Source: an uncultured Eubacteriales bacterium | GTDB lineage: Bacteria > Bacillota > Clostridia > Christensenellales > CAG-138 | Reading direction: 5' to 3' | NCBI GenBank assembly: GCA_902765005.1 | Contig: CACWYB010000004.1 | Location: forward strand, 95,179 to 159,178 | DNA length: 64,000 bases | Shown: positions 15,816-19,564 of the stretch, one piece after another | Numbering within the stretch: position 1 is the first letter of the stretch | Layout of the letters: every line of letters begins with the position of its first letter | Made by a program: the position numbers and the translations under genes | Notes under the pieces: generated by a model | Databases searched by the model: none | What the model was told of the DNA's origin: nothing | The model's input: only the letters and a program-made list of their open reading frames with translations

Positions 15816-16985
15816 ATGGATAGAACCGAGATACTCATTCTGATACTGTCCCTGCTCCTCTTTGCGCGGTTGGTTTGGGAAGCCCTTCGAGCCCGCAAGG
15901 ATCGGAAGGCTGTTTCCCATGTGGTCTATGTGAACGGCACCCGGGGCAAGTCCACCGTCACCCGGATGATCGCCGCGGGCCTGTCCGCCGGGGGGCATCG
16001 GGTCCTGTGCAAAACCACCGGCACTCTGCCCATCGCCATCCATCCCAACGGCCGGCAGGAGCTCATCGAGCGAAAAGCCCCGGCCAACATCCGGGAGCAG
16101 CTCACCTATCTGCATAAGGCGGCCAAGGAGCAGGCGGATATTCTGGTCATCGAATGCATGGCCCTGCAGCCCGAGTATCAGCGGGTGTCCGGGCGGGACA
16201 TGCTCGCCTGCGACGTGGGCGTCATCACCAACGCCCGGCTGGACCACATGGACGTCATGGGCCAGACCCGGGAGGAGATCCTCACCTGCCTTATGGAAAT
16301 GCTCCCCAAGGACGGAAAGATCTTTACGGCGGAGCGGGATTTTCCCGCCATGCTGGAGAAAAAAGCCCGGGAGCTGGGCAGCGCTCTGACCATCACAGAC
16401 CCGGCGTCCGTGGAAGATATCCCCGGGGCCATGGAGCTGGACTTCCCCGAGAACGTGGCCCTGGCCCTGGCGGTCTGCCAGGGGCTGGGGGTGGATCGAC
16501 CGACCGCCTTTGAGGGCATCCGTCATTTCGTGCGGGACCCCTTCGCTCTGTCCGTTTTCTCGGGGAAAAACCTGACTTTCGTCAATGCCCTTTCCGCCAA
16601 CGACGTGAGCTCCACCCAGATGATCTATGAGAAGACCCGGGGCCCGGCAGAGGAGGAGTTGGTCATCCTCATCAACAACCGGGGGGACCGTCCCGCCCGG
16701 GCCCGGGACATGGCCCGGCTTTGCCGGGTGATGCAGCCTAAAAGGATCTGGCTCCTGGGGGACGAGCAGCAGGCCCTGTCCCGGCTGTGCCGGCGGGCGG
16801 CGCCGGAGGCGGACATACAGGGGTTCCAAAGGGCGGAGCAGATCCCCCTTGAAAGCCAGGCGCCCCGGCTGATCCTGGCGGTGGGGAACATCAAAAATGA
16901 GGGCATGCGCCTGGTGGAGCGGGCCCAGCGGGAGCTGCAGGAGAAGCCGGTCATGAAGGAGGCGGAGAAGAGCCGTGTACAGTAA
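15816..16985 (+). CDS. pgsB: Poly-gamma-glutamate synthase PgsB/CapB
   Basis: It has an N-terminal TM followed by the Mur-ligase P-loop VYVNGTRGKSTVTRMI. At 389 aa it is collinear with PgsB (IECMALQPEYQ, ITNARLDHMDVMG). Confidence 0.9.
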   Translation: MDRTEILILILSLLLFARLVWEALRARKDRKAVSHVVYVNGTRGKSTVTRMIAAGLSAGGHRVLCKTTGTLPIAIHPNGRQELIERKAPANIREQLTYLHKAAKEQADILVIECMALQPEYQRVSGRDMLACDVGVITNARLDHMDVMGQTREEILTCLMEMLPKDGKIFTAERDFPAMLEKKARELGSALTITDPASVEDIPGAMELDFPENVALALAVCQGLGVDRPTAFEGIRHFVRDPFALSVFSGKNLTFVNALSANDVSSTQMIYEKTRGPAEEELVILINNRGDRPARARDMARLCRVMQPKRIWLLGDEQQALSRLCRRAAPEADIQGFQRAEQIPLESQAPRLILAVGNIKNEGMRLVERAQRELQEKPVMKEAEKSRVQ

Positions 16986-17397
16986 GATCGTCATCGTGGG
17001 CGTGTTGATCGCCGTTCTATATTCCGAGATAACGGGCCTTTCCACCGGCGGCCTGGTGGCTCCGGTGTACTTCGCCCTGAGCTTGAACGACCCCTGGCGC
17101 ATCGGCTACACCCTGGCCATCATCCTGGGGGTCTATGGCCTTGACAGGCTCCTGAGCCGGTTTTTGATCCTTTACGGCAGGCGGCTCTTCGCCGTGAATG
17201 TGATTTTGAGCTTCGCCCTCACCTATCTGGTGGGCCTTTCGGGGGTATTGCCCTTCGGCATCCGGATCATCGGCTACCTGGTCCCCGCCCTGATCGTGCG
17301 GGATCTGCAGCGGCAGGGCTTTGTGAAAACCGGCATCTCCCTGGGGGCGGTCACGGCCCTGTGCGCCCTGTGCCTTATGTGGGTGGGCATGCTATGA
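16975..17397 (+). CDS. pgsC: Poly-gamma-glutamate synthesis membrane protein PgsC/CapC
   Basis: GTG 16975 overlaps the pgsB end. It is 140 aa with 4 TM segments. The blocks EITGLSTGGLVAPVYFAL, ILYGRRLFAV and GYLVPALIVRDLQRQG match PgsC. Confidence 0.9.
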   Translation: MYSKIVIVGVLIAVLYSEITGLSTGGLVAPVYFALSLNDPWRIGYTLAIILGVYGLDRLLSRFLILYGRRLFAVNVILSFALTYLVGLSGVLPFGIRIIGYLVPALIVRDLQRQGFVKTGISLGAVTALCALCLMWVGML

Positions 17398-18482
17398 GCG
17401 GCAAGCGGCTGGCTCTACAATGGGGGTGCTTGGCCCTCTCCCTTCTTTTGGTCCTGGGAGCAGGCATTCTCGCCCGGCGCCAAAGGCGGCTGCCCTATGC
17501 TCAAAAGATGGAGGAAGCGGCCCGGCTCCATGAGCAGGCGACGGCCCTCATCCGGGAGGAGAAGGCGAGGCGTGGCGTGGCCCTTGCAGCGGAGGATACC
17601 CTGGGCATCGGCCTGCTGGGCTACGATTTCACCGCCATCATGACCACCGCCGCCGGCCTGGAGGAAAAGCGCACCAGCCAGCTGCCAGACTTTGCCGCCC
17701 TCTGCGTCCGCTACTTTTCGGAGGCGGGTCTGCAGCCCGGGGACCCGGTGGGCGCCAACTTCTCCGGCTCCTATCCGGGGCTCAATCTGGCCGCCCTTTG
17801 CGCCGCGGAGGTCATGGGCTTGGACCTGCGCTATTCCACCTCCGTGGGCTCCTCTAAATATGGGGCCAACAACCCGGAGTATACCTTTCCCGAGATGGCC
17901 AAAACCCTCTATGACGCCGGCCTTATCTCCGCCCTGCCCGTGCTGGTCACCATGGGCGGCGGGGGCGACATGGGTTACAATATGATGGCCTATGTGCTGG
18001 AAGAGGAGGAGGATCTGCAGGCGGTGGAGGCCCTGAAGCGCCGTTTGGCGGCGGCGGACCTCACCCCGGCGGCCATCGAAAGCTTTGGGCAGGATATTGA
18101 GCTCCATGAGCGGCTCTACGGAAACATCAAGGCCTTCGTGAACGCCGGGGGCAACAGCCTGGGCCTGGGCTCCTCCGACAACACACGCATGCTCTCCCTG
18201 GGCAGCGGACTTCTTGCGCCGCAGCCCATCCAGATCAGCCCCAACAGCGGCCTTACGGAGCGATATTTTGCCAAGGGCATCCCCACCATCCACCTGCTGA
18301 ATGTGCGCGCCCTCTGCACCGAAAGCGGCATCCCCTTCGACCCGAAGACCCTGCCGGCCATCGGCGCCGCCGCCATGTACTATGGGGGCACCTACGCGCC
18401 CCTTTCCCTCCTGGCCCTGCTCCTTGCCACGGGGGGAGCGGCCGGATTCTTTCTTTTGAAGCGAAGGGAGGCGAAGCCATGA
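17394..18482 (+). CDS. Poly-gamma-glutamate system accessory protein, paralog 1 (bitopic: N- and C-terminal TM)
   Basis: ATGA overlap with pgsC. From memory it resembles the 'poly-gamma-glutamate system protein' family that accompanies pgsB/pgsC when pgsA is missing. The C-terminal TM plus KRREAKP tail is seen directly. Confidence 0.65.
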   Translation: MSGKRLALQWGCLALSLLLVLGAGILARRQRRLPYAQKMEEAARLHEQATALIREEKARRGVALAAEDTLGIGLLGYDFTAIMTTAAGLEEKRTSQLPDFAALCVRYFSEAGLQPGDPVGANFSGSYPGLNLAALCAAEVMGLDLRYSTSVGSSKYGANNPEYTFPEMAKTLYDAGLISALPVLVTMGGGGDMGYNMMAYVLEEEEDLQAVEALKRRLAAADLTPAAIESFGQDIELHERLYGNIKAFVNAGGNSLGLGSSDNTRMLSLGSGLLAPQPIQISPNSGLTERYFAKGIPTIHLLNVRALCTESGIPFDPKTLPAIGAAAMYYGGTYAPLSLLALLLATGGAAGFFLLKRREAKP

Positions 18483-19564
18483 AAGAGCGCAAGCTCCTTT
18501 GGCAGGGCCTGGTGGCCCTGGCGCTGATCCCCTGCGTGCTCCTCATCTACCTGATGGGCCGCCGGGTCAGGCTCCCCTATGCGGACGAGATGGAATCCGC
18601 CGCCCGGCTCCACGGGCAGGTGGTGGCGGCGGTGAAGGCCGAGCGCCTGCGCCGGGGGTATGAGCTGGTTCCGGAGGATCGGCTGGCCCTGGGCCTGATG
18701 GGCAACCAGATTTCCGCCATCACCACCTCTCTGGGCAGCGAGGAGGCCAAGCGCACCTCCCAGCTGTCGGACTTCGCGGCCCTGGCCGTTCGCTATCTCC
18801 ATGAGGCCGGGGTCCGGCCCGGGGACAGGATCGGCGCCTGCTTTTCCGCCTCCTTCCCGGGGGTGGACCTGGCGGTGCTCTGCGCGGCGGAGATCATGGG
18901 CCTGGATATAGAATACAGCGTGTCCATCGGCTCCTCCAACTACGGGGCCAACCTGCCGGGCTACGTGCTGCCGGAGATGATCCTCACGGCCCACCAGGCG
19001 GGGCTCCTGTCCACCCTGCCCCAGCTCATCACCATGGGCGGCGACGGGGACGCGGGGGAGAACATGATGGCCTATATGCTGGAGGACGAGGAGGACATCC
19101 GGGAGATCGAAGAGATGCAGGCCCGGCTGAATGAGGAGGGCCTGTCCCTGACTTATTATTCCCAGGGCTTCGAGGCGGACGTGCTGGATCGGATGGCCCG
19201 CATGGGGGATATTGCGGCCTTCGTCAACGTGGGCGGCAACATCCTGGGCATGGGCGACACGGACGCCGCCGTGAACTTCGGCCAGGGGCTCATGCCTCCT
19301 GCGGACCCCCGCATCGGCCCCAAGAGCGGCCTGGTGGAGCGGTATCTGAGCCTGGGCGTGCCGGTGATCCATCTGCTGAACATCAAGCAGCTCTGCGCCG
19401 AGACCGGCATCCCCTACGACCCGGTGACCCTGCCGGAGCCGGGGACCTCCGGGGTGTATTACCACCGGGATTATTCACGTCTCGCCATCGGGCTCGTCTT
19501 CGCCGGGGCCGCGATCGCCATCCTGGCCATCCAGCTTCTGTCCCGCCAAAAGCGGGAGGCCTGA
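18479..19564 (+). CDS. Poly-gamma-glutamate system accessory protein, paralog 2
   Basis: ATGA overlap with paralog 1. It is collinear with paralog 1 over the full length; shared blocks include RLPYA, KRTSQL.DFAAL, LCAAE.MGLD, GSS.YGAN, TMGG.GD, NMMAY.LE.EED, ER..LG.P.IHLLN and GIP.DP.TLP. The C-terminal TM is followed by SRQKREA. Confidence 0.65.
   Translation: MKERKLLWQGLVALALIPCVLLIYLMGRRVRLPYADEMESAARLHGQVVAAVKAERLRRGYELVPEDRLALGLMGNQISAITTSLGSEEAKRTSQLSDFAALAVRYLHEAGVRPGDRIGACFSASFPGVDLAVLCAAEIMGLDIEYSVSIGSSNYGANLPGYVLPEMILTAHQAGLLSTLPQLITMGGDGDAGENMMAYMLEDEEDIREIEEMQARLNEEGLSLTYYSQGFEADVLDRMARMGDIAAFVNVGGNILGMGDTDAAVNFGQGLMPPADPRIGPKSGLVERYLSLGVPVIHLLNIKQLCAETGIPYDPVTLPEPGTSGVYYHRDYSRLAIGLVFAGAAIAILAIQLLSRQKREA

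Follow-up and report, generated by a model that had tools for sequence, protein, structure and literature searches.

Mechanistic thinking about the synthesis of poly-gamma-glutamate (PGA) starts from the Bacillus synthase, in which PgsB and PgsC are held to form the catalytic site and PgsA to aid removal or transport of the chain (PMC4928254). PgsB and PgsC are called 'the conserved components' of the synthase in a passage of PMC4497714 that cites Candela 2009. In Bacillus subtilis, pgsBC alone made and secreted 26 g/L of PGA, with a D/L ratio of 5/95 versus 75/25 when pgsA was present (PMC6029982). We found neither a solved PgsBCA structure in the PDB nor a 'PgsBCA' cryogenic electron microscopy paper. 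Outside the Bacilli, Fusobacterium nucleatum is reported to secrete PGA, according to passages of three later papers (PMC3815933, PMC4928254, PMC4497714) that cite Candela 2009. Here we describe a locus in a 64-kb stretch of contig CACWYB010000004.1 from an uncultured Eubacteriales bacterium (hereafter the window, meaning that whole stretch), in which pgsB and pgsC are followed by two tandem genes of the pgsW family. We regard it as probable that this locus is a Fusobacterium-type (PgsA-less) PGA system, with PgsW as an accessory subunit beside PgsBC and with the two PgsW copies, W1 and W2, forming a heterodimer.

The operon consists of four co-directional open reading frames (ORFs) spanning 15816-19564, and independent gene callers agree on two other metagenome contigs that carry an identical W1:

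15816..16985, plus strand: pgsB, 389 aa, ATP-dependent amide ligase subunit with a GTRGKST motif, a transmembrane (TM) segment at residues 6-24 and a Mur_ligase_M match
16975..17397, plus strand: pgsC, 140 aa, polytopic membrane subunit with a GTG start
17394..18482, plus strand: pgsW1, 362 aa, with an N-terminal TM segment, an extracytoplasmic alpha/beta domain, a C-terminal TM segment and a basic tail
18479..19564, plus strand: pgsW2, 361 aa, paralog of pgsW1 with the same architecture

PgsB scored 322.4 bits against the NCBIfam equivalog TIGR04012 (cutoff 222.7), and PgsC scored 87.8 bits against Pfam Caps_synth_CapC (PF14102; cutoff 27) and 88.1 bits against TIGR04011 (cutoff 96.45). The two genes overlap by 11 nt at the GTG start of pgsC, and ATGA overlaps link both pgsC to pgsW1 and pgsW1 to pgsW2. 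W1 and W2 are 50% identical (171/339 residues, E = 3e-108) and match TIGR04332, 'poly-gamma-glutamate system protein', at 256.2 bits (W1, model positions 4-307 of 307) and 255.6 bits (W2), with a cutoff of 100. The RefSeq gene symbol for the orthologue in Cetobacterium somerae is pgsW. A first-pass annotation of the window, made by a model from the letters alone, had already recognized the GTG-coupled pgsB-pgsC pair, the two ATGA-coupled paralogs of 362 and 361 aa sharing about half their positions, their N- and C-terminal TM segments and basic tails, and the family to which they belong. Coordinates, motif, overlap lengths and hidden Markov model (HMM) scores all agree with it, and the HMM search of the paralogs led to no well-characterized unrelated family.

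That annotation had further noted that no CapA/PgsA-like ORF exists in the window, which our searches bear out. Two Bacillus CapA queries, both genuine capA genes (from pXO2 and from a B. thuringiensis plasmid), were run with phmmer --max against all six-frame stop-to-stop segments and gave a best E value of 2.9, and an HMM trained on 60 CapA/PgsA proteins from Bacillaceae found no match better than E = 0.16 in the window or than E = 2 across 78 related loci. The search is sensitive enough, because the pXO2 query picks up CapA-family genes, at 1e-15 to 1e-29, on plasmids from archaea, Deinococcus, spirochaetes, rhizobia and Clostridia. No PgsE/CapE homologue was found in the window. Two metallophosphoesterases, set apart from CapA in the first reading, are real, small and not CapA-like:

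4303/4309-4854: metallophosphoesterase 1, 183 aa, YfcE-type, with DLHG...GNCD motifs
62475-63236: metallophosphoesterase 2, with a Pfam Metallophos match

PgsW itself is unrelated to CapA. Alignment of a 46-sequence PgsW profile with a 20-sequence CapA profile gave an hhalign probability of 0.6%, which rules out PgsW as a diverged PgsA; in addition, W1 and W2 match no Pfam family, PF09587 (PGA_cap) included, and no match to a metallophosphoesterase fold was seen.

An exhaustive PgsW profile search returned 1,471 clusters (50% identity) at E <= 1e-3, including 777 at E <= 1e-30. We then scanned one genome per GTDB species, obtained 78 distinct PgsW loci and annotated these in six frames; their record titles name Clostridia, Lachnospiraceae, Fusobacterium (including F. 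nucleatum), Aminicenantes, Thermotogaceae/Kosmotogales, Halanaerobiales, Atribacterota, Spirochaetes, Acholeplasmataceae, Gemmatimonadota, Ignavibacteriae and Alphaproteobacteria. Of the 78 loci, 68 have both pgsB and pgsC; among the 40 that are well flanked, with 6 kb or more on each side, the number is 36. The order pgsB-pgsC-pgsW was found in 63 of the 68 loci having both synthase genes (the Cetobacterium locus counted), and in 58 of these 63 the pgsW start lies no more than 120 nt from the pgsC stop. CapA occurred within 10 kb on either side of PgsW in 0 of 78 loci. Since CapA is absent from every surveyed PgsW locus across many phyla, the PgsA-less layout is not peculiar to the lineage of the window. 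Co-occurrence upholds the pairing of PgsW with pgsBC and the absence of CapA within 10 kb of it, and overturns the earlier suggestion that the arrangement is special to 'this anaerobe lineage', given that F. nucleatum shares it. The same applies to double anchoring, which had been put forward as a distinctive feature: among 91 complete PgsW ORFs, 86 have an N-terminal hydrophobic segment and 70 a C-terminal TM segment, and the double membrane anchor is the norm of the family rather than a trait of one lineage.

The family is already catalogued and computationally defined, and its biochemical role is one that we infer. Apart from a table entry that lists F. tularensis capA (FTT_0807, YP_169814) as 'poly-gamma-glutamate system protein' (PMC5362203), we found no paper on 'pgsW' or 'TIGR04332'. 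The statement in the first-pass annotation that no experimental characterization is known therefore stands as far as biochemistry is concerned, but the family is not wholly unstudied if FTT_0807 is a member, given the virulence genetics of capBCA (PMC4688374).

The sole lineage-specific feature of the operon is the tandem duplication of pgsW. In a neighbor-joining tree of 97 PgsW sequences, W1 and W2 of the window fall into two sister clades, each with the same genomes: survey loci L004-L008, from rumen and gut metagenome-assembled genomes (MAGs) labelled Christensenellales or Clostridia, and ten MAGs labelled Lachnospiraceae. Because the sister clades hold the same genomes, we infer one duplication in a common ancestor, with both copies retained since. 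Two loci (L017 and L020) carry only the W2-type gene, pgsW was duplicated independently in a MAG labelled Alphaproteobacteria (L068), and all other phyla surveyed have a single copy. In the Lachnospiraceae group, the W1 orthologues no longer have the C-terminal helix, and a lipobox is present in some of them. In three MAG species, W1 and W2 are fused in frame into ORFs of ~720 aa (L004 9992-12163, L006 9917-12079, L007 9971-12160), and the junction sequence differs in each. The fusions are consistent with a single topology, in which one domain lies outside, a helix leads in, a short basic loop lies in the cytoplasm, a second helix leads out and the second domain again lies outside. As both copies are retained, translationally coupled and, in these three species, fused, W1 and W2 most likely form a heterodimer. 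What is new here is this duplicated and sometimes fused PgsW, kept across a clade of rumen and gut Clostridia. Of three further proteins, P0002 is a 5'-truncated W1-W2 fusion and P0054 and P0178 are probable ones, and several long proteins of the representative library (600-820 aa) may add to the number.

PgsW has no detectable solved structural relative. The AlphaFold2 model of W1 (pLDDT 88.4, pTM 0.85) gave no Foldseek match in the PDB at E <= 1e-3, the best being generic Rossmann-like proteins at E ~1e-2 and TM-scores of at most 0.25; nothing significant was found in BFVD, and hmmsearch of the PgsW profile against PDB sequences gave no match. The family-invariant residues D68, K92, S126, S154, G157, G188, G252 and G253 are all kept in both W1 and W2. 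In the W1 model, invariant residues follow the strands at 118-123, 144-150, 184-186 and 247-251, and the conserved sites (D68, K92-R93-T94, S124/S126, S150/G152/S154/G157, G188-G189/D192 and N250/G252-G253) map to the C-terminal strand ends of a six-stranded alpha/beta sheet or to the preceding KRT helix. This is classic ligand-site geometry, and on the strength of the model PgsW probably binds or chemically processes a polyanion outside the membrane.

The operon had been read as a four-gene unit; it is instead the end of a conserved nine-gene island, in the order ggt, DUF6305, DctM-like, 51-aa ORF, AstE-like, pgsB, pgsC, pgsW1 and pgsW2. The genes and signals upstream and downstream of the synthase genes are:

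10185..12032, plus strand: ggt2, first gene of the island, Pfam G_glu_transpept (466 bits) and TAT_signal (twin-arginine), with a SRRSFLKGTAAAGASLAAA motif
12108..12992, plus strand: DUF6305 lipoprotein, lipobox LVAC|G, with a C-terminal DUF6305 domain (PF19823, 157 bits)
13047..14333, plus strand: DctM-like (TRAP large-subunit-type) permease, Pfam DctM (58 bits), E = 1e-133 to the Cetobacterium orthologue
14347..14502, plus strand: two-helix membrane ORF, 51 aa, also predicted by the gene caller on Logan contig L083
14515..15654, plus strand: AstE/AspA-type (M14-like) zinc hydrolase, extracytoplasmic, with an N-terminal TM segment, Pfam AstE_AspA_cat (37 bits) and a weak Peptidase_M99 match
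15669..15698, plus strand: terminator-like hairpin 3' of the AstE-like gene, a 13-bp stem followed by a T-run, partial terminator or attenuator
15754..15782, plus strand: sigma-70-like promoter match, TGGACA-17-TACAAT, 10 of 12 positions, a consensus match only and the best of the region, 34 nt 5' of pgsB
19588..19617, plus strand: strong intrinsic terminator, a 13-bp stem with 11 GC pairs followed by a T-run, common to a convergent iorB-like gene

The ggt2 product matches the Cetobacterium GGT in the same position at E = 2.5e-161 and B. anthracis CapD at 180 bits. In the lipoprotein, two near-identical coiled-coil repeats (ALNTRIAVLEQK and ALSTRIAVLEEK) and then a (PAAE)n linker precede the DUF6305 domain; in several Halanaerobiales loci, a DUF6305 gene lies directly 3' of pgsW. 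The AstE-like hydrolase carries the zinc motifs GGTHANEPAG and DLHES, matches PDB entries 3cdx and 2qj8 at ~3e-7 and its Cetobacterium orthologue at E = 8.5e-129. Between the window and Cetobacterium, both the permease and the AstE-like protein are better conserved than PgsB (E = 9e-64). No DctQ or DctP partner was found near the permease, and the 51-aa ORF could be its small subunit. This ORF has no Pfam match but resembles a 47-aa Cetobacterium ORF in the same slot (E = 9.8e-6), a slot also filled in F. nucleatum and ~20 other loci; a role as a PgsE/CapE analogue was ruled out, there being no similarity to CapE. Of the 40 well-flanked PgsW loci, 28 have the AstE-like gene, 29 the permease, 29 DUF6305 and 14 GGT, in varying orientations; 17 have an ORF of the 51-aa type.

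Some loci arrange these genes differently. In L049 (Atribacterota), pgsC-pgsB is divergent from pgsW and the whole accessory module is present. In L073, L074, L078 and L081, units of pgsW with module genes lie at about 8-14 kb in each locus, with unrelated flanks in L074; their PgsW proteins, which have no C-terminal helix, group with L068 in a separate clade. Upstream of the island in the window lie a second GGT paralog (4861-6753, plus strand; Pfam, 536 bits), whose similarity to the Cetobacterium GGT exceeds that of the in-island copy (E = 2e-183 versus 2.5e-161), and tatC (9258-10076, plus strand), just upstream of the Tat-signal GGT2; both possibly belong to the functional neighborhood of the island. 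Between them is an ORF of 654 aa on the minus strand (6972-8936) with no Pfam match.

Given the hairpin and promoter-like match 5' of pgsB and the strong terminator 3' of pgsW2, pgsB-pgsC-pgsW1-pgsW2 is probably its own transcription unit. An Rfam scan of 9000-20500, covering leader RNAs and riboswitches 5' of pgsB, gave no family at gathering score. Two convergent genes on the minus strand (19633-21944; 242 aa and 573 aa) both end at the pgsW2 hairpin and resemble indolepyruvate/2-oxoacid:ferredoxin oxidoreductase, with a Pfam POR match for the first gene on a neighboring contig; the names iorA and iorB are our reading of the sequences. The position of the hairpin where pgsW2 and the iorB-like gene converge suggests a bidirectional terminator. 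Antisense shadow ORFs, for example at 12033-14366 and 15660-17102 (both minus strand), overlap real genes and are not genes themselves, as is typical at ~62% GC.

How might such a system work? PgsB, as ATP-dependent glutamate ligase, and PgsC, as its polytopic partner, would constitute the polymerase and exporter, the presumed product being PGA. Judging by its position, its coupling, its membrane tethers and its exclusivity with CapA, the best reading of PgsW is that of a non-homologous protein in the accessory slot, filling the place that PgsA has in Bacilli. Tethered by its N- and C-terminal helices, it would hold its alpha/beta domain outside, where the invariant Asp/Lys/Ser/Gly residues at the strand ends may form a ligand pocket, and from a place beside PgsBC it could bind or process the nascent polyanion on emergence. 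Because B. subtilis makes PGA with pgsBC alone and PgsA chiefly alters the D/L ratio (PMC6029982), a third subunit would modulate the product and not be required for export; PgsW may accordingly tune yield, release or chain properties. For the same reason, the earlier proposal that replacement of PgsA implies a different export or anchoring mechanism was an over-reading. W1 and W2, stemming from one duplication, would act as a heterodimer. All members of the upstream module are extracytoplasmic or membrane-integral and one of them is a GGT of the CapD/B. subtilis Ggt family, which suggests that GGT, the DUF6305 lipoprotein, the permease, the small membrane protein and the AstE-like hydrolase plausibly trim the polymer and re-import glutamate.

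A number of observations count against this account and have to be weighed with its rivals. Lone PgsW genes occur in Atribacterota (L030, L044, L046 and L047), and in L030 the neighbors are an LIV-type ABC transporter, SNase, a histidine phosphatase, an SSF symporter and an aminotransferase, all housekeeping genes unrelated to PgsW. In addition, L073, L074, L078 and L081 hold self-contained GGT-PgsW-permease-small-AstE-like-DUF6305 units with no pgsBC within 8-10 kb. These loci mean that PgsW is not strictly bound to the synthase by adjacency, and in the literature we found no experiment linking PgsW to PGA for any organism. PgsW might then be no synthase subunit at all but an extracytoplasmic enzyme or binding protein of a PGA turnover and uptake module, which captures or cleaves gamma-glutamyl polymer for trimming, release and glutamate re-import, its adjacency to pgsC reflecting co-regulation rather than a physical complex. 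Such a role would fit the self-contained units, the enzyme-like look of the invariant Ser/Lys/Asp/Gly pocket and the presence of the module beside PgsW in ~70% of well-flanked loci. We nevertheless consider it rather unlikely: ten Lachnospiraceae-group loci keep pgsB-pgsC-pgsW-pgsW, the seven well-flanked ones having no module within at least 6 kb; pgsW is coupled to pgsC and lies immediately 3' of it in 58 of 63 loci; and two membrane anchors would be unusual for a purely catabolic exo-enzyme.

The product is a separate matter. In Francisella, capBCA is a virulence determinant, yet capB and capC are dispensable for the capsule and no PGA has been demonstrated (PMC4688374), which speaks against PGA as the product of such loci, and PgsC of the window falls under its equivalog cutoff (88.1 versus 96.45). 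The locus could therefore make no high-molecular-weight PGA, and instead short gamma-glutamyl chains on another acceptor or a different envelope product, as suspected for Francisella capBCA. PgsB is well over its own cutoff, however, the island shares its gene order with F. nucleatum, a PGA secretor by the report cited in PMC3815933, and the neighboring GGTs, as CapD homologues, suit a gamma-glutamyl polymer, all of which makes a different product improbable. Still harder to credit is a canonical PgsA/CapA elsewhere in the genome that serves the synthase, with the PgsW pair as an unrelated add-on. The visible portion of the genome is only 64 kb, which weakens our case, and CapA-family genes are widespread, non-producers included; but Bacillus loci have CapA right after pgsC, whereas no PgsW locus of the 78 has it within 10 kb, PgsW occupies exactly the post-pgsC slot, and PgsA is dispensable even in Bacillus (PMC6029982). 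The Fusobacterium-type system with PgsW as accessory subunit is thus the reading we retain. A bolder version of it, possible but doubtful, would make PgsW a new-fold extracytoplasmic enzyme whose invariant Lys/Ser/Asp pocket is catalytic on gamma-PGA as the chain emerges (releasing or transferring it, setting its length or editing its stereochemistry, for instance) and the main third component of non-Bacilli PGA synthases, working as an obligate W1/W2 heterodimer or fused chain in the window's clade, with the nine-gene island as a complete make, trim and re-import cycle of gut and rumen anaerobes.

Almost all mechanistic work on polyglutamate synthesis concerns Bacillus PgsBCA, while many other phyla pair pgsBC with PgsW; examples are F. 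nucleatum, an oral pathogen, and, going by annotation, Francisella. Since PgsBC was already known to be sufficient for polymerization, the locus leaves the current picture standing, and we find it useful rather than surprising, the PgsA-less layout being common outside Bacilli. It offers a way into a protein family that has gone unstudied, and adds a duplicated, sometimes fused PgsW and a wider conserved island to what was known. The W1/W2 pair and the natural single-chain fusions of this clade are convenient for expression, structure and interaction work, and the conserved GGT, AstE-like, DUF6305 and permease genes suggest that polymer synthesis and recycling are organized together in gut and rumen anaerobes.

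Three described systems can be set beside the locus. The capBCA locus of F. tularensis (FTT_0805-0807) is likewise a three-gene capB/capC/'capA' arrangement, with a single 'capA' in place of the two pgsW genes of the window. Martin-Garcia et al. (2014) reportedly placed its CapA in the inner membrane, with two TM helices and a large hydrophilic domain. At the level of annotation it is probably a PgsW, since its RefSeq name is the product name of TIGR04332; no Francisella protein was among the best 120 matches of the PgsW profile search. The Bacillus PgsBCA(E)/CapBCADE systems share with the window homologous PgsB and PgsC, encoded in the same order by overlapping or abutting genes, a membrane-anchored extracytoplasmic protein encoded right after pgsC and an associated GGT-family enzyme (CapD or Ggt). 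Unlike Bacillus, the window has PgsW as the product of its third gene rather than the metallophosphoesterase-like PgsA/CapA, and no PgsE/CapE homologue; PgsW has two anchors and Bacillus CapA one, and the AstE-like, DUF6305 and permease genes are missing from the two Bacillus loci examined. Closest in layout are the PGA loci of F. nucleatum (L022) and C. somerae (L001), which have all eight gene types in the same order and orientation, are without CapA and end in a doubly anchored PgsW annotated as pgsW in RefSeq. Relative to these, PgsW identity is only ~30-37%; in the window, pgsW is present twice through an old duplication, the DUF6305 protein is extended at its N terminus by a long coiled coil and linker, and a second GGT and tatC lie just upstream.

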